Translations under genes and position numbers: made by a program
The notes under the pieces: model-generated
Told to the model about the DNA's origin: nothing
Databases searched by the model: none
Seen by the model: the letters and a program-made list of their open reading frames with translations, nothing else
Assembly (NCBI GenBank): GCA_018995085.1
Contig: GCA_018995085.1_3936.1
Reading direction: 5' to 3' (one strand)
Length of the DNA stretch: 64,000 bases
Source of the DNA: a phage
Part shown: piece after piece, positions 21,595 through 63,988 of the stretch
Numbering within the stretch: position 1 is the stretch's first letter
How the letters are laid out: each line of letters starts with the position of its first letter

Positions 21595-21795
21595 ATGAGC
21601 GAGACCGTTTATAAAGAACTTTATGAAGCTAATAAGAAGCTAGAATTTATGCAGAATACTATCATGGCAATTGCAGACAGATTGTCTGTAGCAACAGGTA
21701 TTGATATTAAAGAAGCATCTATGGATGCACTTCTTGATGCTGTTGATGCAAAGTTCGAAGTTAAGAAAGAAGAGACTGCTACAGACTCTGAATAA
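21595..21795 (+). CDS. hypothetical small acidic protein upstream of terminase
   Basis: ORF track; 66 aa, too small for confident small-terminase call. Confidence 0.45.
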   Translation: MSETVYKELYEANKKLEFMQNTIMAIADRLSVATGIDIKEASMDALLDAVDAKFEVKKEETATDSE

Positions 21796-21801
21796 TTCTA
21801 T

Positions 21802-23418
21802 TTGCGGAGGCGCTTAATGGACTTAAATGCTGTTAAGCAGAAGCGAGTGGAAGATGTTAGGAAAGTCCTAGCTGGAGAGTTGGGGCTTTCTGATGAAGTA
21901 AAAGAAATTATTAAATCATTCGGTAAAGACCCCTCTAAATTCCTTCCAACTCAAATTCTGACTTTATTAAGATACACACCAGACCAAGTTCGCCTTATCT
22001 TTAAATTGATGACTGATAAGAATTATGTAGCCCCTCAGCCGGGTTCTCAAGAGGTCTTTTTAAATACTAATGCTGACTTGGTTCTTTATGGTGGTGCTGC
22101 TGGTGCTGGTAAAACTGCTGCATTGTTAATGGACTCTCTAAGATTTATTGAAGACCCTAACTATAATGCTGTATATTTCCGTCGAAATACAACACAGCTA
22201 CAAGGTGGTTTATGGCCTGCTGCAAAGAAACTATTTGGTAAGTTTGGTGGGATTCCTCACGAGCAGAAAATGACTATCACATTCCCTTCTGGGGCAACTA
22301 TCAAGTTTACCTACCTAGAACTTGAAAAGCACGCTGAAGGTCATCAGGGTATTGAGTATTCAGCCATTTACTTTGACGAAGGTACACACTTCTCTGCTTC
22401 ACAGATTTCATACCTACAAACTCGTCTACGTTCTGGGGCTGAAGGTGATTCATACATGAAGATTTCTATGAACCCAGACAGAGACCACTTTATTTACGAT
22501 TGGGTAGAGCCATTCTTAGATGAAGAAGGTTACCCAGACCCTGAAAAGTGTGGTCGTATTCGTTGGTATGTAATGAATGATGGTGTTATGGTTTCTGATT
22601 GGGAGAGAGACAAGATTCTTGAAATGTTTCCTCTTGAGATTCCTCAAACATATACATTCATCTCTGGTACGATTGATGATAACCCAATTCTTGACTTCTT
22701 AGAACCAAAATACCGTGGTAAGTTGGAAAACAACACCCCTGTAAACGTTGCAAGACTTCGTTTCGGTAACTGGAAGGCTCGTGCAGAAGGTTCAAACTAT
22801 TGGCAAAGACAATGGTGTGAAATTGTTGATTCACTCCCAGAAGATGTATTTGATGTTAGAGCATGGGACTTAGCAGCAACTTTACCATCGGAGATTAACC
22901 CTAATCCAGACTGGACAGCAGGTGTTAAGATGGGTAAATCTAAAAAAGACGGTTGCTATTATATCATTGATGTAGTAAGATTTAGAGATAGACCCTCTGG
23001 AGTCGAAACACAAATTAATTTGACTGCTGAAAGTGACGGTAAGCGAACTGGTATTTTTATCCCTCAAGACCCAGGCGCTGCTGGTAAATCCTACGCAACA
23101 TCCCTCATCAGGAAACTTGCCGAGAAAGGTTATCGAGCAAGAGCCAAACCAACAAATAAAGATAAAGTTACCCGCTTTGCGGGATTTTCTGCTGCTTCTG
23201 AAGCTGGACTTGTAAAAGTCTTGAGAGGTAGTTGGAATGAAGCTTACTTTCAAGAGCTTGAAGGCTTTTGTGGCGATGGTAAAACTAAAGATGACCAAGT
23301 GGATGCTACCAGTGATGCTTTCAACAGTCTTAACGAAGTTAAATTATTCAAGCCACCATCAATGGGTGCTCACACAGATTTAGTGAGAGGAAACCCATAT
23401 GAGGGGCTTAGACGTTGA
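21802..23418 (+). CDS. terminase large subunit
   Basis: Walker A VLYGGAAGAGKTAAL; size 538 aa; position ahead of portal; likely true start is ATG at 21817 after GGAGG. Confidence 0.85.
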   Translation: MRRRLMDLNAVKQKRVEDVRKVLAGELGLSDEVKEIIKSFGKDPSKFLPTQILTLLRYTPDQVRLIFKLMTDKNYVAPQPGSQEVFLNTNADLVLYGGAAGAGKTAALLMDSLRFIEDPNYNAVYFRRNTTQLQGGLWPAAKKLFGKFGGIPHEQKMTITFPSGATIKFTYLELEKHAEGHQGIEYSAIYFDEGTHFSASQISYLQTRLRSGAEGDSYMKISMNPDRDHFIYDWVEPFLDEEGYPDPEKCGRIRWYVMNDGVMVSDWERDKILEMFPLEIPQTYTFISGTIDDNPILDFLEPKYRGKLENNTPVNVARLRFGNWKARAEGSNYWQRQWCEIVDSLPEDVFDVRAWDLAATLPSEINPNPDWTAGVKMGKSKKDGCYYIIDVVRFRDRPSGVETQINLTAESDGKRTGIFIPQDPGAAGKSYATSLIRKLAEKGYRARAKPTNKDKVTRFAGFSAASEAGLVKVLRGSWNEAYFQELEGFCGDGKTKDDQVDATSDAFNSLNEVKLFKPPSMGAHTDLVRGNPYEGLRR

Positions 23419-23425
23419 TAGCTAG

Positions 23426-24901
23426 GTGAGAAGAATGGCAGATATTACAGAAACACAAGAAAGCTTACCACCATTTAGAATGGGTGAAGTAGGTTCTTTG
23501 GGTCTGAAGGTTAAGAATGGAAGAATCTATGAAGAACCTCGTCAGGCACTAAGGTTCCCTGAAAGTATTAAAACTTTCCAATTAATGATGCGTGACCCTG
23601 CTGTAGCAGCATCTGTAAATATTATTAAGATGTTTGTCAGAAAAGTCAACTGGAGATTCGTACCTCCAAAGGGAAAAGAGCAAGACCCTAAAATGCTTGA
23701 AAGAGCAGACTTCTTTAATTCTTTAATGGATGACATGGAGCATGATTGGGCAGATTTTATTAATTCTGTAATGTCATTCTGCACTTATGGGTTCTGTGTT
23801 AATGAAAAGGTTTATAAGAAACGTCAGGGTAAGAAAGGAAAGTACCAGTCTAAATTTGATGATGGTCTAATTGGATGGGCTAAATTACCAATCAGAAACC
23901 AATCAACACTTGATAAGTGGTATTTTGACGAAGACTTTAGAAAAGTTACAGGTGTTAGACAGAATCTGAGAAATGTTTCACATATTGCTGGAGCAATTAA
24001 TCTCGGAGAAAAACCACTGACAAGAAAACTTCCACGAGCTAAATTCATGCTGTTTAAGTATGACGATGAATATGGAAATCCAGAAGGTCGTTCACCATTA
24101 CTTAATGCTTATGTACCGTGGAAGTATAAAGTACAGATTGAAGAGTATGAAGCTGTTGGTGTTTCAAGAGACTTGGTAGGTATGCCAAAGATTGGTTTAC
24201 CACCAGATTATCTGGATGAAAATGCAGAACCTGAAAAGAAAGCTTTCGTACAATACTGCAAAACTGTTGTCAACGATATGATTGCTAATGACAGAGCAGG
24301 TTTAATCTGGCCTAGATATATCGACCCAGATACTAAAGAGGATATTTTCGAGTTCTCATTAGTTTCTAGACAGGGTGCTAAAGCATACGATACAGGTTCT
24401 ATTATTGACAGATACTCCAAGCAGATTATGATGGCATTTATGTCAGATGTTCTTGCTATGGGTCAGTCAAAATACGGTTCATTCTCTCTTGCAGACTCTA
24501 AGACAAGCTTATTAGCGATGTCAGTAGATATTCTGCTGAAGCAAATTAAGAACGTAATTAACCGTGACTTAGTTGCACAGACTTATGCTCTTAATATGTG
24601 GGATGATGAAGAACATGTACAAATCACATATGATGATATCGAAACTCCAGACCTTGAAGCAATTGGTTCTTATATTCAGAAGACTGTTGCAGTAGGTGCT
24701 TTGGAAGTTGACAAAGAGCTATCTAACAAGCTTAGAGAGCATATTGGTCTTCCTCCTGCTGATGAGTCTCAGCCAGTATCTGAAAAGCTTTCTCCAAATA
24801 GCCAAAGCCGTTCAGGAGATGGTTATAAGACCGCTGGAGAAGGTACTGCAAAGACACCTTCAGCGAAAGACCCAAGCACAGCAAATAAGGCAAATAAATA
24901 A
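23426..24901 (+). CDS. portal protein
   Basis: 491 aa directly downstream of large terminase; start codon uncertain (ATG at 23435). Confidence 0.65.
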   Translation: MRRMADITETQESLPPFRMGEVGSLGLKVKNGRIYEEPRQALRFPESIKTFQLMMRDPAVAASVNIIKMFVRKVNWRFVPPKGKEQDPKMLERADFFNSLMDDMEHDWADFINSVMSFCTYGFCVNEKVYKKRQGKKGKYQSKFDDGLIGWAKLPIRNQSTLDKWYFDEDFRKVTGVRQNLRNVSHIAGAINLGEKPLTRKLPRAKFMLFKYDDEYGNPEGRSPLLNAYVPWKYKVQIEEYEAVGVSRDLVGMPKIGLPPDYLDENAEPEKKAFVQYCKTVVNDMIANDRAGLIWPRYIDPDTKEDIFEFSLVSRQGAKAYDTGSIIDRYSKQIMMAFMSDVLAMGQSKYGSFSLADSKTSLLAMSVDILLKQIKNVINRDLVAQTYALNMWDDEEHVQITYDDIETPDLEAIGSYIQKTVAVGALEVDKELSNKLREHIGLPPADESQPVSEKLSPNSQSRSGDGYKTAGEGTAKTPSAKDPSTANKANK

Positions 24902-25401
24902 TGGCTGAAGTTATCTCTATTTCAAATGCTACACGAGTGCATTCGTATAGGGGTGTTCTTATTATCACTGACAAATTATCTGTAGAGGCTGGCTCAAGGG
25001 TCAGCCTTTCAGGTTACGTAAGTGACGGTGGAACCTCTGACGTTTTCACTATTTGTAGGTTACTTGATGCTCCAATGAGTGGAAAACCGTTTATTTCAGG
25101 AAATTGTAGTGAAATTGTTAAAATTCCATTTGACAGTTCATGCCTTTTGGGTGTAAAGTTATATAACTGCGAGAATAAACGTATCAGTGTTAATAGCATT
25201 GAAGCCGCTTTCATTACCCTCGACACTGCATTTCAATCTCCAATGACAGTTAATAAAGAAACAAACAGACTTGAATACATTTTTTCACAAAATGATTACA
25301 AAGTACTTGTCAAAGGCAAAGTATATGATATGATTGTAAATGTGGTAGATGAATCTGGTAACCATTCAACAGTCCTTAAACAAAAAGTAAGGTTTAATTA
25401 A
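24901..25401 (+). CDS. hypothetical head-module protein
   Basis: ORF track; coupled start/stop. Confidence 0.5.
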   Translation: MAEVISISNATRVHSYRGVLIITDKLSVEAGSRVSLSGYVSDGGTSDVFTICRLLDAPMSGKPFISGNCSEIVKIPFDSSCLLGVKLYNCENKRISVNSIEAAFITLDTAFQSPMTVNKETNRLEYIFSQNDYKVLVKGKVYDMIVNVVDESGNHSTVLKQKVRFN

Positions 25402-25733
25402 TGGGAACATTAACTATTGATGGTAAGAACAAAATCCTCGCCACGCTAACCCCAACGACTATTATTTTACACAATGTAGACCCAACGGCAGACCCTACAG
25501 CAAATAAGGTTACTCAGCCAGTGGCTATTTATTTTTCTGAACCGGATAATGGCTTAATTGCCTCAGAAGACACAGTTAACATTACTGTCCCAGCTTCTGC
25601 AACGGTCTCACACTATAGCTTGTGGGATGCTAACGATAAATGCGTGGCAACTGGTGCTCTTAGCAAACCTCAATTCTTTGCTGAAGAAGGTATCTATGTT
25701 ATCTCTTCAGTCTCTGTAGATTTAAACAAATAG
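25401..25733 (+). CDS. hypothetical head-module protein
   Basis: ORF track. Confidence 0.5.
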   Translation: MGTLTIDGKNKILATLTPTTIILHNVDPTADPTANKVTQPVAIYFSEPDNGLIASEDTVNITVPASATVSHYSLWDANDKCVATGALSKPQFFAEEGIYVISSVSVDLNK

Positions 25734-25744: not shown

Positions 25745-27091
25745 ATGAGTTCGAATATCTTCAGACTTGCTGATAGATTATTCAACCAACCTTTACTAGC
25801 CACTGAATCATTAGCTCACTCAGCAGCAACTTATGTGAATAACAGATTGCTGGGTGATGTCCAAGCAGCAGTAAACTTTGATAAACCCAAAGGTGACGCA
25901 AGAAGTCTTTTAAAAGTAAAAGATGACATTGCTATTATCCCTATTATGGGTGGCTTAACCCATCGTATGACATTCATTGATGCAATGTGTACAGGTGGAT
26001 TAAGCTCTTATGAGGGTTTACGTAGAGGCTTTGACGAAGCTTTAGCAGATGAGTCAATTAAGACTATTGTTCTGCATATTGATTCTGGTGGTGGTGAAGC
26101 TTCAGGTTGCTTTGAATTAGCACGTCACATCATGGCTTCAAGAGGCCAAAAGAAAATTATTGCTTATGTAGATGAGTTCGCTTGTTCCGCTGCATATGCT
26201 CTTGCATCTTCTGCTGAAGAAATTATTGCATCACCAGATGCAGATGTTGGTTCTATTGGTGTAATCATGGTTCATCAGGAATTAACTAAGGCATTTGAAA
26301 AGAATGGCGTAACAATTAACGTCATCAAAGCTGGTGAGTTTAAAGGTATGGGTTCACCATTCCAAGCACTTTCAGAAGAAAGCAAAGAAAGACTTCAAAA
26401 GAGAATTAATGATACCTACGCAACCTTTACAGGTTTTGTAGCTGAAGCTCGTAATATCTCTGAAGAAGCTGTAAAGAATACTGAGGCGAATGTTTATTCT
26501 GCTCAGGAAGCTCTTGAACTTGGTTTAATTAACTCAATCATGTCTCAAGATGATTTCTTAAATTACTTACAAGGTTCTGAAGAGGCTCCTGTAAGTTTAA
26601 ACGTTAACAATTCAGGTGAAGAAATGACTGAACAAGAAAAGCAAGAACTAGAAGCTTTGCGTCTTCAGGTTGCTCAAATGAAAGCTAAAGAACAGGAAGC
26701 TGCTTTGTCAGATTTGACTAATAAGATTTCTGCTTCTGCTGAAGCTTTTGGATTTGATGCAAAAGAAGCTGCAACGACTATTTTAGGTGCTGGTCTTGAT
26801 AACCCTCTAAGTGTTCTGTTTATGAATGCTATGGAAGGTGCTAACCAGAAACTTAATGAAACTATCGCGTCCCATGCTTCTGCAATGGAAGAAAAAGAAT
26901 CAGAAATTACCAAGCTGAAAGAAACTGCTGGTGCTGTTCTTGAACATTCTAACGCTATGGAAGAAGTGGGTAATGACGGCGAAGCTGATTTGGTTGAAGA
27001 AGAAAAAGAACCAGCTAAGAATGCTTCCGAAGACACCGCTGAACAACGCAAACTGGCTCTCCAGAATGCTCTAAAATCTCTTATCAAATAA
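25745..27091 (+). CDS. prohead protease (S49/ClpP-like) with C-terminal acidic scaffold-like domain
   Basis: S49-type serine peptidase region (IVLHIDSGGGE, AYVDEFACSAAYALAS); C-terminal coiled-coil/acidic 150 aa. Confidence 0.75.
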   Translation: MSSNIFRLADRLFNQPLLATESLAHSAATYVNNRLLGDVQAAVNFDKPKGDARSLLKVKDDIAIIPIMGGLTHRMTFIDAMCTGGLSSYEGLRRGFDEALADESIKTIVLHIDSGGGEASGCFELARHIMASRGQKKIIAYVDEFACSAAYALASSAEEIIASPDADVGSIGVIMVHQELTKAFEKNGVTINVIKAGEFKGMGSPFQALSEESKERLQKRINDTYATFTGFVAEARNISEEAVKNTEANVYSAQEALELGLINSIMSQDDFLNYLQGSEEAPVSLNVNNSGEEMTEQEKQELEALRLQVAQMKAKEQEAALSDLTNKISASAEAFGFDAKEAATTILGAGLDNPLSVLFMNAMEGANQKLNETIASHASAMEEKESEITKLKETAGAVLEHSNAMEEVGNDGEADLVEEEKEPAKNASEDTAEQRKLALQNALKSLIK

Positions 27092-27102: not shown

Positions 27103-27480
27103 ATGGCATATCAAGGTTTTACTAAGTTAGGTAACAGAGAACCTCTGAATGATATCATTCTTTGGGAACAGGTTACACCAACAGGCCACTCTCGTAAAGA
27201 GTATACCCCACAGGCATCTACAGAGTATCGTGTAGGTGAAGTTCTGAAAGCAGATGGTACTAAGGTACAAGCTGGAGAAGAATCTCAAGCAGACTCTGTA
27301 TGTATCGTTAATTTCTACGCAGACCTGCAACTGTCTTACCACGGTCAGTTGAAAGTTGTTGGTATTTACCGCGACGCAGAGCTAAAAGACATGCTTACTC
27401 TTGAATCAAGCGTTGACGCTGATGCAGTCAAGACAGCTCTGGCTGCTAAAGGTATTGATTTCGTACCAACTGGCCTGTGA
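27103..27480 (+). CDS. putative head decoration or capsid accessory protein
   Basis: 125 aa between protease and capsid gene (lambda D-like position); positional only. Confidence 0.35.
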   Translation: MAYQGFTKLGNREPLNDIILWEQVTPTGHSRKEYTPQASTEYRVGEVLKADGTKVQAGEESQADSVCIVNFYADLQLSYHGQLKVVGIYRDAELKDMLTLESSVDADAVKTALAAKGIDFVPTGL

Positions 27481-27513: not shown

Positions 27514-28620
27514 ATGTTGACTAATTCTGAAAAAAGCAGATTTTTCCTTGCTGACCTGACTGGTGAAGTCCAGTCTATCCCAAATACTTATGGGTATATT
27601 TCCAACTTAGGTCTGTTCCGTTCAGCACCAATCACCCAGACGACTTTCCTTATGGACTTGACTGATTGGGATGTTAGCTTGCTTGATGCGGTAGACCGTG
27701 ATAGCCGTAAAGCAGAGACTAGCGCACCTGAGCGTGTTCGTCAAATCAGCTTCCCAATGATGTACTTCAAAGAAGTTGAAAGCATTACTCCTGATGAAAT
27801 TCAGGGTGTACGTCAGCCAGGCACTGCAAACGAACTGACTACTGAAGCTGTAGTACGTGCTAAGAAGCTGATGAAGATTCGTACCAAGTTCGATATTACT
27901 CGTGAGTTCCTGTTTATGCAAGCTCTGAAGGGTAAAGTTGTTGATGCTCGTGGTACTCTGTATGCTGACCTGTACAAGCAGTTCGACGTTGAGAAGAAGA
28001 CTGTTTACTTCGACCTTGACAACCCTAATGCTGACATCGACGCTTCTATTGAAGAACTGCGTATGCACATGGAAGACGAAGCTAAGACTGGCACTGTAAT
28101 CAACGGTGAAGAAATTCACGTAGTTGTTGACCGTGTATTCTTCAGCAAACTGGTTAAGCATCCTAAGATTCGTGACGCTTATCTTGCACAGCAGACTCCA
28201 CTGGCTTGGCAACAGATTACTGGTTCTCTGAGAACTGGTGGTACTGACGGAGTTCAGGCTCACATGAACACCTTCTACTACGGTGGTGTTAAGTTTGTCC
28301 AGTACAACGGTAAGTTCAAAGACAAGCGTGGTAAGGTTCACACTCTGGTGAGCATTGATAGTGTAGCAGCAACTGTTGGTGTTGGTCATGCCTTCCCTAA
28401 CGTATCTATGCTTGGTGAAGCTAACAACATCTTCGAAGTTGCATATGGTCCATGTCCTAAGATGGGTTATGCAAATACACTTGGTCAGGAACTGTACGTA
28501 TTCGAATACGAAAAAGACCGTGACGAAGGTATTGACTTCGAAGCTCACTCTTACATGCTGCCATACTGCACACGTCCTCAGTTGCTGGTAGACGTTCGTT
28601 CTGACGCTAAACCAGACTAA
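27514..28620 (+). CDS. major capsid protein
   Basis: 368 aa, position after protease/scaffold; lambda E-like gene order; SD GGAGA upstream. Confidence 0.65.
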   Translation: MLTNSEKSRFFLADLTGEVQSIPNTYGYISNLGLFRSAPITQTTFLMDLTDWDVSLLDAVDRDSRKAETSAPERVRQISFPMMYFKEVESITPDEIQGVRQPGTANELTTEAVVRAKKLMKIRTKFDITREFLFMQALKGKVVDARGTLYADLYKQFDVEKKTVYFDLDNPNADIDASIEELRMHMEDEAKTGTVINGEEIHVVVDRVFFSKLVKHPKIRDAYLAQQTPLAWQQITGSLRTGGTDGVQAHMNTFYYGGVKFVQYNGKFKDKRGKVHTLVSIDSVAATVGVGHAFPNVSMLGEANNIFEVAYGPCPKMGYANTLGQELYVFEYEKDRDEGIDFEAHSYMLPYCTRPQLLVDVRSDAKPD

Positions 28621-28641: not shown

Positions 28642-29091
28642 ATGTGTTATACAGGCGACCCAGCCAATAACCCTCTTGATAGAGTAAGAATCCTCTGCAC
28701 AGACACCAATAATGATGAAATTCTTATTGAGCAGTCTGTGCTAGAGTGGTTCTATCTAGAATCTGGAAAGGATGAAAAGAAAGCAGCCATCAAAGCTCTT
28801 AAATATTTACTCTTTCAAGTAGCCAAGATGGGAGATGAGAAGGTTGGTGGTGTTTATTTACGTAACTCTTCCAGATTCAAATCTCTGAAAGCTGTTTATG
28901 ACGACCTTGTTAAAAGCTCTGTTTCAGGACTACCCTATGCAGGTGGTATTAATCAGTGCGACATTGATATGCGTCGTCAGAATCCTTGCTCTGTCAAGAA
29001 ATACACAGAATATGGTGATGCTGCCAGATACGAAGGCAGAGATTACTGCAACCGTGTTAATGGCGTATTTATTATCGAGCGAGATGAATAA
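28642..29091 (+). CDS. head-tail joining protein candidate
   Basis: positional. Confidence 0.4.
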   Translation: MCYTGDPANNPLDRVRILCTDTNNDEILIEQSVLEWFYLESGKDEKKAAIKALKYLLFQVAKMGDEKVGGVYLRNSSRFKSLKAVYDDLVKSSVSGLPYAGGINQCDIDMRRQNPCSVKKYTEYGDAARYEGRDYCNRVNGVFIIERDE

Positions 29092-29573
29092 TGGTTAAAA
29101 GGGTTATTCACCCCGCTAGAGCAAAATTAGTCGGGGCTATGAAGAACTTGCAAACGGCTAATGCTCAAGTTGGGTATTTTCAAGAACAAGGTCAACATAG
29201 CTCTGGTTTTTCTTATCCTGCTTTAATGTATTTACAAGAAGTTATTGGGGTTCCTTCAGCTTCTGGTAAAGTATATCGTAGGTTGTTTGAAATCACTATG
29301 ATGCTAAACAAACAGACCTTGTTAGAGCAGACTAAGAAGAATCTATATAAGCAACTTAGCAGTCTCAACACAGACCCTTCAAATACCTTAGAAGCATTTG
29401 CAAAGAATGCTCAAAAGGCAATTAAAAGAGGTTTTGGTAATTCTGCTATCCTCCCTCCTAACGCACCTTCCACAGTCAAGAAAAAAGGCTTTAATGCACC
29501 TCTTGTTGAGACAGGTGACTTAAGAGATAACCTTGCTTATAAAATTTCTACTAAGAAGGGTATTAAGAAATGA
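29091..29573 (+). CDS. head-tail joining protein candidate
   Basis: positional. Confidence 0.4.
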   Translation: MVKRVIHPARAKLVGAMKNLQTANAQVGYFQEQGQHSSGFSYPALMYLQEVIGVPSASGKVYRRLFEITMMLNKQTLLEQTKKNLYKQLSSLNTDPSNTLEAFAKNAQKAIKRGFGNSAILPPNAPSTVKKKGFNAPLVETGDLRDNLAYKISTKKGIKK

Positions 29574-29971
29574 GACTCTTAAACAGACACAGCTTTGTAG
29601 TAAAGCGTAAAGTCTCTGAAGACGGTTATTACAATGATGATGGTGATTGGGTAGCTTCACAAGATATTGTAGAGGTTAACTGTAAAGGTAATATCCAGCC
29701 ATATATCAAAGGTTCTGTAAAGAATGGTACACAGATTGCTTTACCGGAAGGTATCAGGCTTACCGATACAAGAATCCTGTATACTACATATAAACTTAGA
29801 ACTTCAGATGATGTAGAGTGGAATGAGTCTGACATTGTTATGATTGATGGTCATGAGTATGAAGTATTTATGACTATGGATTGGTCACAGCAATTAGCCC
29901 ATACGTCCCATTATGAATATATCATTATTAGAAGGGATAAAATGAATGCAGTTAGAAACAGCAGAACTTGA
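29570..29971 (+). CDS. tail completion protein candidate
   Basis: positional. Confidence 0.4.
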   Translation: MRLLNRHSFVVKRKVSEDGYYNDDGDWVASQDIVEVNCKGNIQPYIKGSVKNGTQIALPEGIRLTDTRILYTTYKLRTSDDVEWNESDIVMIDGHEYEVFMTMDWSQQLAHTSHYEYIIIRRDKMNAVRNSRT

Positions 29972-32832: not shown

Positions 32833-32834
32833 AC

Positions 32835-33073: not shown

Positions 33074-33074
<1 letters not shown>
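32835..33074 (+). CDS. tail assembly chaperone frameshift extension
   Basis: ORF in -1 frame relative to 32434..32832, directly upstream of tape measure. Confidence 0.5.
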
Positions 33075-55622: not shown

Positions 55623-55652
55623 ACATTACTGCAAAAAATTATAAAAAGCAAG

Positions 55653-55677
55653 TTGACAATGTACTTGACAAGGTGTT
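55653..55677. promoter_or_regulatory. conserved 25-nt motif GTTGACAATGTACTTGACAAGGTGT in divergent promoter region
   Basis: 24 of 25 nt identical to 13611-13635; two TTGACA hexamers. Confidence 0.5.
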
Positions 55678-55849
55678 AATCTTTGCGAAGTGGGTTTTTA
55701 CTTAAAAGGTTACTTAACAGTTTAACTATACAGATACTTTAAAACTCTTAAAAGATTATTTAATAGCTTTTAAAAAGCTTTAAAGTATAACGTATAGAAT
55801 ACGTTAAGATAAAAGATTAAAACTTAATAGTTACTTAAAAGAGGCTTAC

Positions 55850-56272
55850 ATGCAGAAAATGTTTGTTCACCCAGACATAGCTGACTTTGTTAGAGCTTTG
55901 CAGAAGTTGGAAGAACTTGACATTGCTGCTCAACGGGAATATGCTCACCATCACAGGAGAATGGTTGATATACAACATGAAATAGAGTTGTCTGAAAACT
56001 ATGAAGATGACTTAAAATGCTCTGTATTTGAGCATATGAAAGATGTTGCTACAGCGAGACGTAAAGCTAAAGACACAGTTGCTTTACTAGATTCTCTTAA
56101 AAAGAGGTTGCAAAGTGGTACAGACCTGTGTAATCTAGCGTCACTGATTAACGATGTTGAAACTTCTTGGGATAGGCACTATTATCCACGTTCTGAAAAG
56201 ACACTTGACTTTTCTTCATCTGAAAACTTAAAATGTTCTAGAAAGAAACTTAACCAACTGAGAGAGAAATAA
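55850..56272 (+). CDS. hypothetical protein
   Basis: ORF track. Confidence 0.55.
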   Translation: MQKMFVHPDIADFVRALQKLEELDIAAQREYAHHHRRMVDIQHEIELSENYEDDLKCSVFEHMKDVATARRKAKDTVALLDSLKKRLQSGTDLCNLASLINDVETSWDRHYYPRSEKTLDFSSSENLKCSRKKLNQLREK

Positions 56273-56273
56273 T

Positions 56274-57074
56274 ATGAATATCGATGTAGAAAAGATGCTT
56301 GAAGAAAAAGGTATTGACGAAGCATTTTTAATCAATGCCGTAGAAAGCATGGCTATGATTCTTCGTGGGAACAACTACACAGAACAGTTTATGCCTGCAA
56401 GCTATAACTTGCCTGAAGACAAGTCTGATAACGGTGCTTTTGCAGAACAGGTCAACATGATGCTTTGCGACAAAACACTTGCTTTAGCATCTATCGTTGT
56501 AGGTGTTGATGCTCTTGCAGAGTTCATTTTTTATGAGATGCAGAAAAATGACTATATTGCCATGACCACTGAAGAAAAAGACTTGCTACTACTCGCAGGT
56601 AATGATGAGCTAATTGACCTGTTAATTTCATCAACCAGTGCTGTTATGGCTGCTCTTGAGAAGCGAATGGAAGAGAAGTTGTCACGATATGAAAAACTTG
56701 ATTGGGGTGTAGAAGAACTAAACCCACGAATCAAGGAGATTATCCAGCAAACTAAAGAGTCTTTGGAAGAAGCTGTTGAGAATGACTCTGTAGCTGATAT
56801 AGAACCGCTTCAGGTGAAAGTTGCACTGATGATTCCAGCTATCTCTACGATGATGAATATCGTTGCACTAATCCAACTTTCACAGATGATGGGTGTGAGT
56901 ATTGAGTTCATTGAAGAGATGACTGGTGGCGTCAGTATGCAAGCAATCAATGATGTTTTGGTGAACATTGGTGCTTCCATCATTGAGGAGAAACTACGCA
57001 TTAACTTCGGTGATGATTTTGTGAAGCAAATCTCAGCTATGACTGAAAAAGAGTCTGCTGAGCAACTGCACTAA
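56274..57074 (+). CDS. hypothetical protein
   Basis: ORF track; followed by terminator. Confidence 0.55.
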   Translation: MNIDVEKMLEEKGIDEAFLINAVESMAMILRGNNYTEQFMPASYNLPEDKSDNGAFAEQVNMMLCDKTLALASIVVGVDALAEFIFYEMQKNDYIAMTTEEKDLLLLAGNDELIDLLISSTSAVMAALEKRMEEKLSRYEKLDWGVEELNPRIKEIIQQTKESLEEAVENDSVADIEPLQVKVALMIPAISTMMNIVALIQLSQMMGVSIEFIEEMTGGVSMQAINDVLVNIGASIIEEKLRINFGDDFVKQISAMTEKESAEQLH

Positions 57075-57092
57075 GTCTTTATAAATCTTACA

Positions 57093-57116
57093 AGCCTCCT
57101 TAGTTGGGGGCTTTTT
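57093..57116 (+). terminator. Rho-independent terminator (AGCCTCC-ttagtt-GGGGGCT + TTTTT)
   Basis: GC hairpin plus T-run. Confidence 0.65.
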
Positions 57117-57135
57117 AGTAATTAATGGAGATAAA

Positions 57136-57879
57136 ATGAGTAATATTATCGCCTTTACTGGAAAGGCACGTTCTGGAAAAGACACCTCATGTTCTATTGT
57201 GAAGAACATTTTAGAGGATGAGTATGGCTACAATGTTGAAGTAATGGCCTTTGCAGACAACCTTAAACTATCTGCATCAAAGATATTTGACTTGACTTGG
57301 AATGACCTGTACGGTGAAACTAAAGAGACTCCACAGGTTTTTGACTTATCATATCCTGAACTGATGTTTAAAGTTACGGAAGCTATGGAGTTCACCTTCA
57401 GAGATGAACGTTACCATATGGACTTCAAGCTTATGTCAGAGTTAACCGGACGATTAATCATGGAGCTTAAGAAGGTTGCTAAACCTACCCTATTAACACG
57501 TCTGGGATTTAGTAAAAAGTATAAATTCTCATCAAGACAAATTCAACAGATTTGGGGTACTGAAGTTGTCCGTAAAGTAATGGGCGACAAGTTCTGGTCT
57601 AAAGACCTTGAAAAAAGAATGGTTAGATTCCATGAAATGTGCTCACTTAGAAATCAATATGGTTTTGTCTTAATCAGTGATTTAAGATTTGACTCTGAAG
57701 CTGAATGGCTGAGTAGATTTGCACACCAAACTATTGAAGTAAAAAGAGACAATGTGGACAAAGTTTCATCACATGTTTCAGAAAATGGGATTTCTACAAA
57801 ATATGAGCGTGACATTATTCATAATAATGGTACTCTTGCAGACCTTGAGAACAAGCTAAGAGCCATCATTAAAGTTTAA
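57136..57879 (+). CDS. deoxynucleoside monophosphate kinase (T4 gp1-like)
   Basis: P-loop FTGKARSGKDT; collinear similarity to T4 dNMP kinase (HVSE, NNGTLADL near C-terminus). Confidence 0.75.
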   Translation: MSNIIAFTGKARSGKDTSCSIVKNILEDEYGYNVEVMAFADNLKLSASKIFDLTWNDLYGETKETPQVFDLSYPELMFKVTEAMEFTFRDERYHMDFKLMSELTGRLIMELKKVAKPTLLTRLGFSKKYKFSSRQIQQIWGTEVVRKVMGDKFWSKDLEKRMVRFHEMCSLRNQYGFVLISDLRFDSEAEWLSRFAHQTIEVKRDNVDKVSSHVSENGISTKYERDIIHNNGTLADLENKLRAIIKV

Positions 57880-57887
57880 AAGAGAGA

Positions 57888-58088
57888 ATGAAGATGAGAG
57901 TAAAAGACAATTTTAAAGTTATTGACCACCGTTTAGTGGAACTCTCATCTCTTTCCAATGAGGTAATGATTGAACGTCTTAAGAGAGTTGAATCACGAAG
58001 GAAAGAGATTGCAGATGAAATTCATGAACTGGACAAGATTGAAAATGGATTGAAGGCAGAACTACAACGAAGAGGTGCTAATGTCTAA
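57888..58088 (+). CDS. hypothetical small coiled-coil protein
   Basis: ORF track. Confidence 0.45.
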   Translation: MKMRVKDNFKVIDHRLVELSSLSNEVMIERLKRVESRRKEIADEIHELDKIENGLKAELQRRGANV

Positions 58089-60066
58089 AGGTCGTAAATT
58101 GAAAGAGGCTGGTCAGTTTGTTGGTCATTGCGCATGTCCACGTTGTGGTTCATCAGATGCTGGTTCAATCTATCATCATGACGATGATTCTTATTCAATG
58201 ACCTGCTTTAGTTGTAACAAGGGTTTCCCAGAGTGGGATTTTGATAAAGGACAAATCGTGAGCACTTATTCTACTGGTTCAGACAATAAAAACCGTACTT
58301 TCCGTGGAATGGACTTAGAAGATGTAAAAGAAAACCTAGAAGCAATGGACTTGAAAGACAGGAAGATTCCTGCAAAAGTCCTTGAACGCTTAGGTATCAA
58401 GGTTGACATTGACAGTGATGGTGAAATTGACGCACATTTCTACCCAACTTACAAACGTAATGAAGATGGTAAGCTAGAACATGTTGGCTACCGTGTTCGT
58501 CACCGTTACCCAGAAGACCATCCAAAAGAGCACCTACGTGGTAAGCTAAAAGACTTTTCTGGTGGTGTTGGAGACATTAAAGGTGAACTAGCAATGTTCG
58601 GTTCATGGATTGCTCCAGAAGGTGGTAACCGTCTATTCATCTGGGAAGGTGAGATGGAATGTGCGACAGCAATCTATATGACTTCTCTTGCGATTAAGGA
58701 CAAATCTCGTCGTAAGAATTACTGTCACGTATCTGTTCCGTCAGGTGCAAACATTAAGTCTATCAAAGATAACTATCAGTACATTACATCATTTGATGAA
58801 ATTTACTTGTGCTTTGATAACGATGAAGCAGGTGCTAAAGCTACCAAAGAGGCTGCTGGTATCCTACCTATTGAGAAGGTTCGTTTATTCCAGTATCCAG
58901 AAGGTGTAAAAGACCTTAACGAATGGTGGACAAAGTTCTATAAAGAGAAAGACACAGTTCTTGAAGGGTTTAAGCAGCGTATCTACAATGCGCCCCGTTA
59001 CTGCCCTGCTGGTATCAAGAACTTCGCAGATGGTTTTGAGGCAATGAAGAATCGTGGTCAGATTCCATTGATTCCTTTCCCAGAATCTTTCGGAGATTTG
59101 AACAGGCTGACTTATGGCGGTTATGGTTTAGGTGAGATTACAACTCTGGCAGCACCATCTTCAGTGGGTAAATCAGCATACACTCGTGAAATGATTTATA
59201 CTGCTTGGAAAGATACCGATTACAATATTGGTGTAATTCCGGTCGAAGATACCTATGAAGAGTTGATGGAGATGCTCTGTGCAATCCACCTCAGCAAGCA
59301 GATTTCTGAGATTCCTTATGACGAACGTGATTGGGATGAATTGAAGGAAGCACATGCAGAGCTATCTAAAGGTCGTCGTATCCACATCGTAGACCATCAA
59401 GGTGCAATTGACCAAGATAACCTGCTGGAATTTGTTGACTATCTTGTTAACAGTTTAGACTGTAAGATTATTATTCTTGACCCTATTACGTTGGCTCTGT
59501 CACGTTCAGATACGGATGAAGAGGAAGTTTTGTCTGAACTATTGCGCCGTTGCAAACGCTACCAGTATGCACAGGTGAACGTCTGTCACGTTCGTAAGAG
59601 CGCAGGGGGTCAGAAAGCCAACTCTGAAGGTGGAGATATCTCTGAAGAGGATATCAAAGGCTCTGGTGCGTATTTCCAGATTTCTATGAACAACATTCTG
59701 TTAATGCGTAACAAGGTTGACCCAGACCCTGTTAAGAAAAACTTGACAAAAATCAAGTTAACTAAGTGCCGTCGGCATGGTAAGTCAACTGGTATTGCTG
59801 GTCATACTTGGTACAATCCAGATACAGGACGTCTCATCAAAGCATCTGGTTGTGGAGTTGACATTGATGGTGCAGCAGAAAACATTCGCCAGCAGTTTGG
59901 TATTGGTGAAGTTGAAGACCATTACGATGACTCTTTGCCACATTATGAGGATGAAGTGTTTGACCGTGAGACTGGTGAAGTCTATACTGAAGAGCAGCGT
60001 CAAAGCTCAACGATTCCACCTGTATTAAGTGAGGATGTAGATGACTGCCCGTTCGAAACTGAGTGA
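58075..60066 (+). CDS. primase-helicase (T7 gp4-like)
   Basis: N-terminal zinc ribbon CPRCG..CFSCNKGF, TOPRIM-like DNDEAG, helicase Walker A APSSVGKSAYTRE. Confidence 0.85.
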   Translation: MLMSKGRKLKEAGQFVGHCACPRCGSSDAGSIYHHDDDSYSMTCFSCNKGFPEWDFDKGQIVSTYSTGSDNKNRTFRGMDLEDVKENLEAMDLKDRKIPAKVLERLGIKVDIDSDGEIDAHFYPTYKRNEDGKLEHVGYRVRHRYPEDHPKEHLRGKLKDFSGGVGDIKGELAMFGSWIAPEGGNRLFIWEGEMECATAIYMTSLAIKDKSRRKNYCHVSVPSGANIKSIKDNYQYITSFDEIYLCFDNDEAGAKATKEAAGILPIEKVRLFQYPEGVKDLNEWWTKFYKEKDTVLEGFKQRIYNAPRYCPAGIKNFADGFEAMKNRGQIPLIPFPESFGDLNRLTYGGYGLGEITTLAAPSSVGKSAYTREMIYTAWKDTDYNIGVIPVEDTYEELMEMLCAIHLSKQISEIPYDERDWDELKEAHAELSKGRRIHIVDHQGAIDQDNLLEFVDYLVNSLDCKIIILDPITLALSRSDTDEEEVLSELLRRCKRYQYAQVNVCHVRKSAGGQKANSEGGDISEEDIKGSGAYFQISMNNILLMRNKVDPDPVKKNLTKIKLTKCRRHGKSTGIAGHTWYNPDTGRLIKASGCGVDIDGAAENIRQQFGIGEVEDHYDDSLPHYEDEVFDRETGEVYTEEQRQSSTIPPVLSEDVDDCPFETE

Positions 60067-60474
60067 TAGCTATAAAAGAGAGGGGTTCACACCCTTCTTT
60101 GAAGAAAAAAGTTTAAATAAATTTCAGGAAGAGTGTTTGACAAAGATTGATAGGTTCTATAGAATGCTCTGCATGAAATGTGATGGAGGCGTTGAGGTAG
60201 AAGAAAACTTCCATCACAGTATTATTACAGTCACTATTACTATACCTCAGCATAATATTGGTTGGCTGTTTATAATGAAAGAAAATGTGTTTGAATATCA
60301 AGTATATCGGAGAATATCATGAAACACTCTAAAGCATTTGAAAAAGTTTTTGGTGATTCCTTAAAAGCCACTGCTGGAAAACCAGCAAAATACTATGAAG
60401 AAAAACGTGTAAGAACTGGAAAAACTGCACGTAAAGCAGCTTCTAAAGATAAGCACAACTTCCAGTAATTAGTA

Positions 60475-60503
60475 TTTGACAATAGAGTATCAACAAACTA
60501 GAA
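60475..60503 (+). promoter_or_regulatory. sigma70-like promoter TTGACA-N17-TAGAAT
   Basis: hexamers read directly upstream of 60541 gene. Confidence 0.55.
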
Positions 60504-60540
60504 TTGGTACTCTTCATAAATTGAGATAGAGGTTTAAATA

Positions 60541-61398
60541 ATGTCTAAAGTTGTTAAAATGAAAGCTCCGGTAGAGAAGTACAACGGTACTGAGCGTCAA
60601 ACTCTGCGTTACCTGCTGAAAGATGTCTGGTTTTATTACCTGAACACTTCACCACGTCCGGGAAAAGGTAAGTCTATTGATAAGAAATTCCCAGGAAAAG
60701 ACTGTAACTACAGCGTATCAATTCTGGCAGAAGACGGTAACAAACTGTTTAAAGAGTTTACTAAGTCTAAGAAAAATCCAGAAGGCTGGGATAAAGTCAC
60801 CACTGAAGCAGTTGATGCAGATGACTTCGAAGAGAAGTTTGGTTGTAAACCACCTTTTGAAGCAGACACTTACTACATCTTGAAAGTAAGTCGTGCAGCA
60901 GCTTATAAGGATGGTGCTGTATGGACAGCTAAACAGTCATTCCCTGTAATGCTGATTGAAGAAGTAAATGGTAAGCGTGTAGCTGTTAAGCAGCCAATGA
61001 AGAAAATCAAAGCTCAAGCATCTGATAAACATGAAGATGACAAGAACTATGATGTAATTCACCCAGATATTGCAGTTGGCAACGGTTCTTTTGGTAGTGT
61101 GATTCTTTCTACTCACTTCTACACTTTTGAGAACAATGTTCTGACAAAACCTATTCAGGAACAGTTTATCATTGATACTCTTGTGCCTTACACTGGTGGT
61201 AACGGTGCTAATGGTGAACCTGAACTGGATGAAGATGAACTGGCTATGCTTGGTCTTGATGGTGTCGAAGATAACGGTGAAATCACTGAAGAAGATGCAA
61301 CAGACCATAAATCTTCGAATGAGTCTGATGATGGTGATGATGAAGATTTGCCAGACCCAGATGACGAAGAGGATGAAGACTTCGATACAGAAGACTAA
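60541..61398 (+). CDS. putative single-stranded DNA-binding protein with acidic C-terminal tail
   Basis: strongly acidic C-terminal 60 aa ending EEDEDFDTED; position in replication module. Confidence 0.4.
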   Translation: MSKVVKMKAPVEKYNGTERQTLRYLLKDVWFYYLNTSPRPGKGKSIDKKFPGKDCNYSVSILAEDGNKLFKEFTKSKKNPEGWDKVTTEAVDADDFEEKFGCKPPFEADTYYILKVSRAAAYKDGAVWTAKQSFPVMLIEEVNGKRVAVKQPMKKIKAQASDKHEDDKNYDVIHPDIAVGNGSFGSVILSTHFYTFENNVLTKPIQEQFIIDTLVPYTGGNGANGEPELDEDELAMLGLDGVEDNGEITEEDATDHKSSNESDDGDDEDLPDPDDEEDEDFDTED

Positions 61399-61417
61399 TC
61401 TCTAAAAGTTACTTTAA

Positions 61418-61444
61418 AGCCCTGTACTTAGTATGGGGCTTTTT
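61418..61444 (+). terminator. Rho-independent terminator (AGCCCT..GGGGCT + TTTTT)
   Basis: hairpin plus T-run after 60541..61398. Confidence 0.6.
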
Positions 61445-61460
61445 CATATGGAGAGCCATA

Positions 61461-62501
61461 ATGGAGAAGTACACATTAACAAAGCTTCCCGATTCAGTTA
61501 CACATGTCTTTATTGACTCTGACAGTATTGCCTATAAAGGTGCTTGTGTAGTTGAGAAAGCAAAATATAAATACGTCAATAAACTCACAGCAGAAGAATC
61601 TGAGCCATTTGATAATGCGAAAGATGCTGCAAGATGGTTAGCAGACCAGAGAATCCTTGTGGAAGAGCTTGGCCTGACATTTGATGAAGATGAATGGGAA
61701 AGACAGACTTGGAAAGAAGCTAAGAGTGAAAAAGAAGCTATCATGGCTACTCAACAGGTGCTTCAGGAATGGCTTAAGGTTGTTGGTAAAGAGAGAACTT
61801 GGGTAGGTTATTTAACAGAGAAAGGTGTGCATAAACATAAAGACATTAAAGGTCTTGAGCACCAATATCAAGGTAACCGTAAAGATGCTGTCACACCAAC
61901 ACACTTAGTTGCTTGTCGTGAATATCTTTTATCCAGACCAGAGTTCAAGCTTTTAAAGGGTGGCTTCGAAGCTGATTCAATTGTAATTGCTAAAGCTGAA
62001 AAGATGGGTAAGAAAGCTGCTCTTATGAGTATTGACAAAGACCTTCGACAAGCTGAAGGAACTTATTGTATTGATATGACTTATGAAAAATCACCACTAA
62101 TCTTTATTGCTGACAATAATGTTGGTGATATCTGGGATTGTCCTATCAAGTCAAAACCAAAAGCTGCAAAAACAGTTGGTGTAGGTTTTAAATTCTTGTG
62201 CTATCAGGCTGTTGCTGGAGATAATGCAGACAACTACTTCGGACTTAAAGGTGCTGGTAAAGTAGCTGTGATGAATGCTTTAGATGGTAAAGAGACCTAC
62301 AAAGAGTGTCTTGATGCTATCTATGAACTCTATGCTAAAAAAGACTCTTACACCTATGTATCATGGGATGGACAGACTGTTACAAAGACACCGTTAGAAC
62401 TAATGGAACAGCATTTCTGGATAGCTTATCAAGAAAGAAATCCAAAAGATAATTTCTCTTTTAAGAAATATAATTGGGAGCCGTGTATGAATGAAGATTA
62501 A
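61461..62501 (+). CDS. 5'-3' exonuclease / flap endonuclease (T5 D15-like)
   Basis: FIDSDSIAYKG N-terminal motif, FEADSIVIA and GDNADNYFGLKGAG blocks. Confidence 0.7.
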   Translation: MEKYTLTKLPDSVTHVFIDSDSIAYKGACVVEKAKYKYVNKLTAEESEPFDNAKDAARWLADQRILVEELGLTFDEDEWERQTWKEAKSEKEAIMATQQVLQEWLKVVGKERTWVGYLTEKGVHKHKDIKGLEHQYQGNRKDAVTPTHLVACREYLLSRPEFKLLKGGFEADSIVIAKAEKMGKKAALMSIDKDLRQAEGTYCIDMTYEKSPLIFIADNNVGDIWDCPIKSKPKAAKTVGVGFKFLCYQAVAGDNADNYFGLKGAGKVAVMNALDGKETYKECLDAIYELYAKKDSYTYVSWDGQTVTKTPLELMEQHFWIAYQERNPKDNFSFKKYNWEPCMNED

Positions 62502-62988
62502 AGGATTTGGCAATTGCCCCACCTATGGTCATTGGGTATCTTTATGTGGGGAAGTTGACCCCACTAAACATTTTGGTTTTGTCTATTTAGTACACTGTAA
62601 GAAGACTGGACAATATTATATCGGAAAGAAACAGCTTAACAGTGTGACCAAAAGAAAAGTTGCTGGGAAGACTCGGAAGAAGGTAGTCACTAAGGAAAGT
62701 GATTGGATGACTTACGAGACTTCTTCTGAGTATATTAAAAAAGATATTGAAAGCTTTGGAAAGGAATCTTTTGACTTTTACATTATCCAAACCTACTACA
62801 CGAAAGGTGGTTTAGTTTATGGTGAAGCAAACCTTCAACATAAATTCGATGTAATGACAAAAAGGATTGACTCTAAGCTCAGACTCTTCTACAATGCCAA
62901 TATTGCAGCAATTAAGTTTATTACTAAAGAAACTTATGAAGATGCTGAAAAAAGAATCCATAAGGTAATGAAAGCGAATTGTGCTTGA
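62491..62988 (+). CDS. GIY-YIG-like protein (T5orf172-type)
   Basis: FVYLVHCKKTGQYYIGKK matches GIY-(10)-YIG spacing. Confidence 0.45.
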   Translation: MKIKGFGNCPTYGHWVSLCGEVDPTKHFGFVYLVHCKKTGQYYIGKKQLNSVTKRKVAGKTRKKVVTKESDWMTYETSSEYIKKDIESFGKESFDFYIIQTYYTKGGLVYGEANLQHKFDVMTKRIDSKLRLFYNANIAAIKFITKETYEDAEKRIHKVMKANCA

Positions 62989-62994
62989 TAACTA

Positions 62995-63240
62995 TTGAGA
63001 GAGAATAAAATGTTTAACAAAAGTAAAGCTGTGAGTCATGTAGCAAAGGTTGACAGCAAGATTGAAGAACTTGAGCGCATTCTTGCAAATGCCAGAGAGT
63101 CAATAATTAAAGAAGTTGAAGCTGTTGAATCTCAAATGCAGCACCTAATGCTTAAACGTCAAGAGTTACGTGAGCATCTGGAATATATTGAAACACGAGA
63201 GCTAAAAGTTAACAGATTTTTAAGGAGTCCGAATGTTTAA
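62995..63240 (+). CDS. hypothetical small coiled-coil protein
   Basis: ORF track. Confidence 0.45.
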   Translation: MRENKMFNKSKAVSHVAKVDSKIEELERILANARESIIKEVEAVESQMQHLMLKRQELREHLEYIETRELKVNRFLRSPNV

Positions 63241-63988
63241 CTCAAGAGAATCAGTAAAAAACTGGAATCTTCGTTGTGGAAACACCCAAAAGCAACCTTA
63301 CAGCAATGAGTATTGGGAATCTTTGAAATCTCAATCTCTGTGTATGCTTGAGGAAGCAAAAGAGCTTGTAAAAGCAATTGAAGAGAAAGACCCCATTGAG
63401 ACACTGGATGCTCAGGCAGATTTGCAATATGTTCTTGATGGTTTGATTTACCTGTCACAACATGACCATAATGGTGCTATGGAAGCTGTTTGCCATAATA
63501 ATGACCTGAAGTACACAGACGACTATGAAGAAGCTTTAAAACGTCTTGCAGATATTGAGAAGCGTACTGGTCAAGAGTGTATCATCAGAATGTCAGTAGT
63601 TGATGGTAAAGAATGGTATGCAATTGTTCGTGCAGCCGATGGGAAGATTATGAAGCAATCTAATCTCCCTAAAGTTCAGCTTGGTGAATACATTGTAGAA
63701 CTTGAAAGCCAAGAACTTTTTGTGGTAGTATCTGACACATGCGTTATCTGCAAAGGTATTGTATGTAGCTTAAAGGATTTGGGTGTAGATGGTTTTGTAG
63801 AAGTTAATCCAATTACCTCTAAAGCAGATAAAGATTTCTGTAAAGAGAATGGACTATGGATTGCAGATATTGTCTACTATGATGGTGAGCAGTTCCATGT
63901 AACCTCATACCCGAAACTGAATTATGATGCTAATAACCTGAAGTGCTGGTTAAAAGGGGTTGGTTATAATGGATTCACAGAACATTAA
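63233..63988 (+). CDS. hypothetical protein, possible MazG-like nucleotide pyrophosphohydrolase
   Basis: EEAKELVKAIEE and DAQADLQYVLDGL resemble all-alpha NTP pyrophosphatase motifs; weak. Confidence 0.3.
   Translation: MFNSRESVKNWNLRCGNTQKQPYSNEYWESLKSQSLCMLEEAKELVKAIEEKDPIETLDAQADLQYVLDGLIYLSQHDHNGAMEAVCHNNDLKYTDDYEEALKRLADIEKRTGQECIIRMSVVDGKEWYAIVRAADGKIMKQSNLPKVQLGEYIVELESQELFVVVSDTCVICKGIVCSLKDLGVDGFVEVNPITSKADKDFCKENGLWIADIVYYDGEQFHVTSYPKLNYDANNLKCWLKGVGYNGFTEH

Follow-up and report, generated by a model that had tools for sequence, protein, structure and literature searches.

The stretch of phage DNA analysed here (64,000 nucleotides of contig GCA_018995085.1_3936.1, hereafter the window) almost certainly comes from the genome of a virulent myovirus in the genus Felixounavirus (subfamily Ounavirinae), with Escherichia phage wV8 as its closest relative, and its mixture of modules is the inherited architecture of that genus. 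An earlier note, made from the letters of positions 21595-63988, had described a mosaic of a contractile-tail virion, a lambda-like head assembly and a T7-like replisome, and had regarded the combination as unusual enough to call for careful taxonomic placement. The same gene set is present in more than 200 genomes and in the Felix O1 genome paper (PMC3185647), indicating that the combination is not unusual. No special placement is needed, because the window falls inside Felixounavirus. The outcome that the note itself had set against its suggestion, namely that the sequence can be assigned clearly to a well-described genus in which the modules are combined in the same way, is what was found (wV8, 95.5% identity over 97%).

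The window represents roughly 73% of a genome of ~88 kb. Its thirds were compared by megablast with 50,697 phage records (collection dated August 2025). The structural block (21595-44900) matched 309 records, with a coverage of at least 80% in 238 of them, and was 97.3% identical to wV8 over 98%. Positions 45000-64000 were ~95% identical to JK55, ekra and Alf5 over 97%, and positions 1-21600 were ~93% identical to finno and heid over 95%. The window was also compared by local blastn with three complete genomes: the figures given above for wV8 come from this comparison, and the others were 93.9% identity and 94% coverage for KEP2, and 93.6% and 91% for NRG857CP1. More than 200 Felixounavirus (Ounavirinae) genomes are collinear with the window at 90-97% nucleotide identity, and the taxonomy line of the matching records reads Caudoviricetes; Ounavirinae; Felixounavirus. 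Open reading frame (ORF) by ORF, the gene order is that of the RefSeq genomes of wV8 and Alf5, one for one.

The genus criterion of the International Committee on Taxonomy of Viruses (ICTV) is at least 70% nucleotide similarity over the genome. The wV8 comparison lies above this value over 64 of the ~88 kb. The traits of Felixounavirus (~39% G+C, a cluster of ~20-26 tRNAs and collinear gene order) are all present in the window, which has a G+C content of ~39% (0.34-0.43 per 2-kb bin) and consists of long co-oriented gene blocks with one tRNA array. The virion type of the genus (myovirus, head of triangulation number T=9, genome of ~84-90 kb) was assessed by proxy: the capsid, decoration (Dec) and sheath proteins of the window are near-identical to chains of solved virions. 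Three segments (17523-17876, 50750-51259 and 52113-52896) are missing from wV8 and correspond to homing-endonuclease cassettes or small genes of other genus members. They were considered as novel insertions and rejected as such, since the HNH cassettes occur in other members of the genus. A G+C content of 39% is also reported for Felix O1, and a highly conserved genome structure across the genus was reported in a comparative study (PMC8300805).

We considered whether the window might come from an unplaced or newly recombinant phage, in which a contractile-tail virion, a lambda-like head and a T7-like replisome were recently joined from different lineages. The nearest characterised relatives of the modules do belong to different groups (lambda for capsid and protease, Mu for the portal, T4 for the terminase, P2 for the baseplate, and T7 gp4, gp5, gp2.5 and gp6 for replication). 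However, the combination occurs in the same order in the more than 200 deposited genomes mentioned above, and a homolog of the putative single-stranded DNA-binding protein (SSB) discussed below is also found in more distant Ounavirinae, e.g. Erwinia phage phiEa21-4. Together, these two observations indicate that the mosaic is ancient, fixed at the subfamily level and not peculiar to the window. The combination was moreover described for Felix O1 in 2010 (PMC3185647). In that paper the polymerase was found to be most like podovirus polymerases (SP6 and T7 among others), the primase/helicase to resemble that of T7-like phages, the head protease to carry an S49 motif, the portal to be related to Mu gp29 and a baseplate protein to P2 gpV. 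It also listed a deoxynucleoside monophosphate (dNMP) kinase, thymidylate synthase, dihydrofolate reductase (DHFR), 5'-exonuclease, ligase and 22 tRNAs, and reported that no phage RNA polymerase is encoded (PMC3185647). A recent joining of modules is thus hardly credible. With the 2010 genome paper and the virion structure of Escherichia phage JohannRWettstein (Bas63), solved whole by cryo-electron microscopy in 2025 (PMC12609058), the module combination is already known.

Two points weigh against the assignment. No single database record reaches a product of identity and coverage of at least 95% over the whole window, so none of the deposited genomes is from the same strain as the phage, and perhaps none is from the same species; and the last ~24 kb of the genome fall outside the window. 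The ICTV species line is 95%, and as no record attains it, the isolate may be a separate species. We lean slightly towards this refinement, namely a new species-level lineage within Felixounavirus formed by recombination among co-circulating members. The product for wV8 is ~92.6% over the window, and the best record differs from third to third (wV8/ECOH1 in the structural, JK55/ekra in the replication and finno/heid in the early part). The best products (~95%, 92% and 88% in the structural, replication and early parts) together fall below the species line, and blastn identity is patchy, from 87 to 99% per 2-kb bin: the values are 97-99% through most of the structural part, drop to ~90% in the long tail fibre and the distal end of the tape measure, and lie between 87 and 93% in the early region. 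On the other hand, the local comparison comprised three complete genomes and 64 of the ~88 kb, the product of blastn identity and coverage only approximates VIRIDIC, and a closer isolate than those in the August 2025 collection may exist. A new species would also be of little significance, as new Felixounavirus species are routinely reported.

Within the Felixounavirus genome to which we assign the window, one local hot spot of divergence was observed. At positions 34001-36000, which hold the distal tape measure and the beginning of the Dit-like gene, identity to each of the three relatives compared is only ~90%, with flanks at 97-98%. Reduced identity of tape measure proteins was remarked on in the Bas63 paper (PMC12609058), with which this divergence is consistent. 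Felix O1-like sequence was also detected in three records attributed to phages of other hosts (GU169904.1, MG065664.1 and OK283618.1; Staphylococcus phage SA1, Campylobacter phage A132 and Listeria phage LPML1, respectively). SA1 and A132 are 92-99% identical, and LPML1 is 51% identical at the protein level. The host labels or the assembly purity of these records look questionable.

The replication genes claimed by the earlier note (a family A polymerase, a gp4-like primase-helicase, a flap endonuclease (FEN)-type exonuclease and an acidic-tail SSB-like protein, alongside T4-like dNMP kinase, thymidylate synthase and DHFR) were recovered in the profile searches. The family A DNA polymerase (909 residues; 52893-55622, minus strand) was identified by PF00476 and phrog_17 (E 3e-113), and its best solved relatives in the PDB are all T7 gp5 (E 1e-10). 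The primase-helicase of T7 gp4 type (Toprim plus DnaB-like domains in Pfam, 663 residues; 58075-60066, plus strand) matched T7 gp4 in the PDB with E 2e-40, and the match covers gp4 residues 120-549, i.e. both the primase and the helicase parts. The 5'-3' exonuclease of FEN/T7 gp6 type (61461-62501, plus strand) belongs to phrog_107 (E 2e-63) and is related to T7 gp6 (BLASTP, E 2e-6, with the DKD and GDxxDxYxG motifs aligned). No Pfam match of the exonuclease exceeded the threshold; matches to PF02739 (5_3_exonuc_N) and PF01367 (5_3_exonuc) were present below it in the expected order, and the 5'-nuclease region of Pol I was matched with E 1e-4. The ATP-dependent DNA ligase (49442-50578, minus strand) was recognised by PF01068 (E 2e-9), with OB_2 below the cut-off.

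The nucleotide enzymes comprise a T4 gp1-type deoxynucleotide monophosphate kinase (57136-57879, plus strand; PF21448, E 1e-20), thymidylate synthase (45525-46424, minus strand; PF00303, E 1e-72), DHFR (46426-46971, minus strand; PF00186, E 1.9e-22) and a MazG-like nucleotide pyrophosphohydrolase (63233-63988, plus strand; PF01503, E 8e-6). No single-subunit phage RNA polymerase was found in the window, the only ORFs of more than 800 residues being the DNA polymerase and a tail fibre gene. A 266-residue protein in the replication block (56274-57074, plus strand) is labelled 'minor tail protein' in phrog_4251 and RefSeq. It has no Pfam match and a weak match to the C-terminus of the CcrC recombinase (E 9.5e-4). 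The label looks doubtful because of the location of the gene in the replication block.

The gene at 60541-61398 (plus strand) lies between the gp4-like and the gp6-like genes and encodes a protein of 285 residues with an acidic C-terminal tail (...DDGDDEDLPDPDDEEDEDFDTED). We consider this protein likely to be the Ounavirinae ortholog of the SSB gp2.5 of T7, on the strength of two significant profile steps; the SSB-like character proposed in the earlier note is thereby supported. The protein belongs to phrog_3877, 'unknown function'. Its homologs occur in 302 phage records and were 'hypothetical' in all 30 sampled; the homolog in the BASEL annotation of Bas63, bas63_0055, is likewise hypothetical.

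Several results weigh against the gp2.5 assignment. As a single sequence, the protein gave nothing meaningful in Pfam, NCBIfam or the PDB, and the narrow family profile gave no match in the PDB. An AlphaFold model built from a 13-sequence alignment had a predicted local distance difference test (pLDDT) score of 44 and was unusable, so the SSB call rests on transitive sequence evidence. Direct comparison of the narrow profile with the single T7 gp2.5 sequence was weak (hhalign, probability of 26%, 25 columns aligned), and the link was therefore built through remote relatives. A profile of 13 Ounavirinae-type sequences was searched against 1.84 billion representatives and recovered 63 proteins, with E values down to 3e-14; about 50 of the 63 are 200-245 residues long. 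A profile made from 54 of the remote proteins only, with no Ounavirinae and no T7 sequence, detected T7 gp2.5 with E 3.4e-10 (PDB-sized search space), and the match spans gp2.5 residues 72-232. The combined alignment matched PDB entry 1je5 with E 2.4e-7. Among 39 aligned members, 23 matched phrog_112 ('Gp2.5-like ssDNA binding protein'), five matched Pfam SBB_T7 and two Enc34_ssDNA-bd. Nearly all relatives have an acidic tail with an aromatic residue at or close to its end. In the Ounavirinae family a phenylalanine four residues from the end (F281) is invariant, and a conserved GNGS hairpin aligns with GGGS of gp2.5. The acidic tail of the T7 protein is reported to contact the polymerase and the helicase (PMC10359462).

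Alternatively, the protein could be acidic but unrelated to SSBs, such as a DNA mimic or an anti-defence protein, with a tail that merely looks like that of an SSB. The missing direct matches and the 25-column hhalign alignment would fit such a protein, as would a length ~50 residues above that of gp2.5 and a conserved phenylalanine that stands four residues from the end and is not terminal. However, both profile steps are highly significant and cover the core of the oligonucleotide/oligosaccharide-binding (OB) fold, not the tail alone; the GNGS hairpin, the 23 bridging sequences in the gp2.5 PHROG and the position between the gp4-like and gp6-like genes also speak against it. We consider the non-SSB reading unlikely. 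In Lopes et al. 2010, on remote gp2.5 homologs, Felix O1 is not mentioned in the text, and the supplement may list an assignment. If the protein is a gp2.5-like SSB, the SSB, primase-helicase, polymerase and exonuclease of the genus would together make up the core T7-type set. Ounavirinae would then be a myovirus subfamily with the core T7-type replisome set and with an SSB variant that is ~50 residues longer and has its conserved aromatic residue four positions from the C-terminus.

The head genes agreed in part with the lambda-like reading. The S49 protease, a decoration protein and a capsid protein of the lambda gpE type are present, but the portal is of Mu type, the terminase is of T4 type and the capsid of a close relative is T=9. 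The T4-type large terminase (Terminase_6N/6C; Pfam E 2e-43 and 4e-33) was called at 21802-23418 (plus strand), and comparison with wV8 terL suggests that its true start is probably at ~21817. It is followed on the same strand by the Mu gp29-type portal (23426-24901; PF06074, Portal_Mu, E 1.5e-26) and by two small virion genes between portal and protease (24901-25733, plus strand), which encode a protein of 166 residues and one of 110 residues. The latter corresponds to the whisker protein gp5 of Bas63 by position and by a weak match to the GP4-fibre Pfam family (PF23140, E 2e-4, below the cut-off). The two genes were considered as scaffold candidates and rejected, as the 110-residue one corresponds to the Bas63 whisker gene.

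The head maturation protease of S49 type (SppA/lambda gpC; 25745-27091, plus strand) was identified by PF01343 (E 6.6e-39), by TIGR00706 above its cut-off and by SppA structures (E 4e-20), as the note had predicted. No separate scaffold gene, which it had also listed, was evident in the head block of the window; at best, the scaffold may be the C-terminal ~150 residues of the protease. This part (~290-448) is rich in Glu, Ala and Lys and scaffold-like, and the gene contains an internal ATG at 26626 with AGGTGA 4 nt before it, making a nested Nu3-like scaffold plausible from the sequence.

The decoration position is occupied by a gene (27103-27480, plus strand) for a real decoration protein, Dec. 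Its family profile matched PDB chain 9ncf_J with E 7e-76, and also 9c2d_J and 9c3a, all deposited as 'Head stabilization/decoration protein'. Dec has no Pfam match, and its AlphaFold model (pLDDT 55) was too poor for a fold search and was superseded by the PDB chains. In Bas63, Dec forms beta-tulip trimers at the quasi-threefold axes (540 copies), in a class that includes lambda gpD, and has a divergent alpha domain (PMC12609058). Dec is mislabelled 'tail protease' in RefSeq and PHROGs, an error that was flagged in the same paper (PMC12609058). It is one intact 125-codon ORF in the window, while the wV8 record contains two overlapping coding sequences (CDSs; genes 62 and 63), both named 'tail protease'; the split is probably a sequencing frameshift in the 2009 record.

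The major capsid protein (27514-28620, plus strand) belongs to the lambda gpE family of HK97 fold (PF03864, E 1.9e-78; PDB 9ncf_A, E 4e-249). The Bas63 capsid is T=9, the gene for its Hoc-like hexamer decoration protein lies outside the structural module by more than 10 kb, and its virion has a collar-whisker complex related to podophage GP4 and two fibre types (PMC12609058). In the window the Hoc-like hexamer decoration protein (Hex-Dec) is encoded at 11003-12136 (minus strand) and was recognised by immunoglobulin repeats, Hoc-like PHROGs and the Bas63 paper (PMC12609058). It is usually mislabelled 'tail protein', a label called wrong in that work (PMC12609058). The connector and neck genes (adaptor, head completion and tail terminator; 28642-30545, plus strand) were identified by phrog_222 (Neck1) and by the tail terminator family PF23961 (E 1.6e-11).

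The arrangement of the tail genes was described correctly in the note, with sheath and tube genes before the chaperones and a W/J-type baseplate, as judged by Pfam, PHROG and PDB matches. All lie on the plus strand. The contractile tail sheath (30546-31898; phrog_205, E 5e-125; PDB 9mt4_Q, E 4e-282) is followed directly 3' by the tail tube gene (31914-32360; PF11681, E 3e-7, and PHROGs) and by the tail assembly chaperone pair (32434-33074; PF21822, E 1e-19). A -1 slippery heptamer, T_TTT_TTC, was read in the zero frame at 32790-32796. The -1 frame is open from the heptamer into the second chaperone ORF (32835-33074), the end of which is the start of the tape measure gene. The tape measure protein (33074-35281) was assigned by its counterpart wV8 gp074 and by position. 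The baseplate block (35281-40764; PF21821, PF18352, PF04865, phrog_196 and phrog_120) encodes Dit-like, hub and P2 gpV-like spike proteins, the W-like wedge (38019-38438), the J-like wedge (38438-39907) and a further baseplate protein. Two tail fibre genes (41069-42244 and 42291-44840), named after the wV8 annotation, form a variable region.

The large tRNA set that had been noticed is also present, just outside the 21595-63988 interval. ARAGORN called 25 tRNAs at 15796-21372 (plus strand), with small ORFs interspersed and an HNH endonuclease at 17482-17880, compared with 26 tRNAs in wV8. Rfam gave 24 tRNA matches in the window, including a marginal extra one at 17437-17515 (31.7 bits vs. a cut-off of 29), which overlaps the start of the HNH ORF (plus strand) and was not called by ARAGORN. 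In wV8 the corresponding site carries tRNA-Trp(cca) and another allele of the HNH gene. The tRNA at 17437-17515 may have been disrupted or replaced by the homing endonuclease. Directly upstream of the array, the gene at 14215-15630 (plus strand) encodes a 471-residue protein with DUF2828 and DUF7788, labelled 'RNA-binding protein' in phrog_850 and 'vWFA protein' in some records; the protein might conceivably be involved in handling tRNA or RNA.

Two features of the early region were also observed. A stretch of ~1.5 kb (3825-5357), at the convergence of the early genes on the plus strand with the minus-strand block, has no ORF of at least 40 residues and is dense in 10-11-nt periodic TGTTAA(G)A/CTTAACA motifs in both orientations. 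It is conserved (~92%) and unannotated in wV8 (13885-15530), there is no discussion of it in the Felix O1 paper (PMC3185647), and it could be an origin or a protein-binding array. Between 616 and 3418, four to five copies of an intergenic cassette of ~87 nt stand upstream of successive small early genes. Each copy combines a promoter box of TTGACA type with a GGGGAGGG...CCTTCCCC hairpin and a ribosome-binding site (repeat families D1 and D3), and the cassettes correspond to the DR repeats annotated in wV8.

Mobile endonuclease genes were detected beside the replication genes. An HNH_3 plus AP2 homing endonuclease identified by Pfam (52370-52921, minus strand) shares 29 nt with the 3' end of the polymerase gene; it is missing from wV8 and present in Alf5 and Bas63. 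In several relatives the polymerase or the ligase is annotated as two CDSs, suggesting mobile-element insertions in those genes. The gene at 62491-62988 (plus strand) encodes a SegE-like GIY-YIG endonuclease domain protein (PF19835, E 4.9e-28). RefSeq (wV8 and Alf5) and phrog_447 name it 'NAD synthetase', probably a propagated mis-annotation in view of the SegE GIY-YIG domain match.

From these modules the phage would be expected to work as follows. The T4-type terminase would package DNA via the Mu-type portal into a T=9 capsid of HK97 fold, built from a lambda-E-family coat protein, matured by the S49 protease and cemented by beta-tulip Dec trimers and the Hoc-like hexamer protein. The contractile tail of sheath and tube would be assembled on the tape measure with frameshifted chaperones, and end in a P2-like V/W/J baseplate. 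Replication would use the gp2.5-like SSB, the gp4-like primase-helicase, the gp5-like polymerase, the gp6-like exonuclease and the ATP-dependent ligase, and would be fed by the T4-style nucleotide enzymes (dNMP kinase, ThyA and DHFR). The array of ~25 tRNA genes could affect the translation rate, given phage-host codon differences, as suggested in the Felix O1 paper (PMC3185647). The steps are taken from close relatives, in which they have been shown, or from homology, and two roles are inferred by us, that of the protease C-terminus as a scaffold and that of the 285-residue protein as an SSB.

The discovery value of the window is small, as it has the published architecture of a genus with hundreds of sequenced isolates. 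The gain lies in annotation: the gp2.5-family assignment would give a probable function to a gene left hypothetical across the genus, and three persistent mislabels were collected: the decoration protein is called 'tail protease', the Hoc-like protein 'tail protein' and the GIY-YIG endonuclease domain 'NAD synthetase'. For phages, a mosaic of modules noticed without consulting databases is a weak signal of novelty.

Among known systems, the window is closest to wV8 (Felixounavirus wV8, NC_012749) and Salmonella phage Felix O1, with which it shares gene content and order over 64 kb, ~39% G+C, the tRNA array and the modules for head, tail, baseplate and replication. Compared with wV8, it carries an additional HNH gene (52370-52921) beside the polymerase gene, and the HNH gene of its tRNA block is a different allele. 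Genes 94/95 of wV8 and the HNH gene that wV8 has between the exonuclease and the GIY-YIG gene are missing from the window, and identity is only ~90% in the distal part of the tape measure and in the long tail fibre. The replication block of Bas63 is 95.5% identical over 95%, and Bas63 is a different isolate. PDB chains from Felixounavirus-type virions match Dec, capsid and sheath of the window almost exactly.

The head module has the same C-D-E order as that of lambda, with the S49 protease gene, the small beta-tulip decoration gene and the PF03864 capsid gene. By contrast, its portal and terminase are of Mu gp29 and T4 type and not lambda gpB and gpA, the capsid is T=9 in a close relative and not T=7, and Dec has a divergent alpha domain. 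The window also has two extra virion genes between portal and protease and a second, Hoc-like decoration protein. The likeness to the T7 replisome extends to homologs of gp2.5 (via the profile chain), gp4 (E 2e-40), gp5 (E 1e-10) and gp6 (E 2e-6), and the ATP-dependent ligase is presumably the counterpart of the T7 ligase gp1.3. Unlike in T7, the polymerase has 909 residues vs. 704, the putative SSB is ~50 residues longer, the virion is that of a myovirus, and the replication genes lie on both strands, interleaved with homing endonucleases and with the T4-type nucleotide set of gp1-type dNMP kinase, thymidylate synthase and DHFR.

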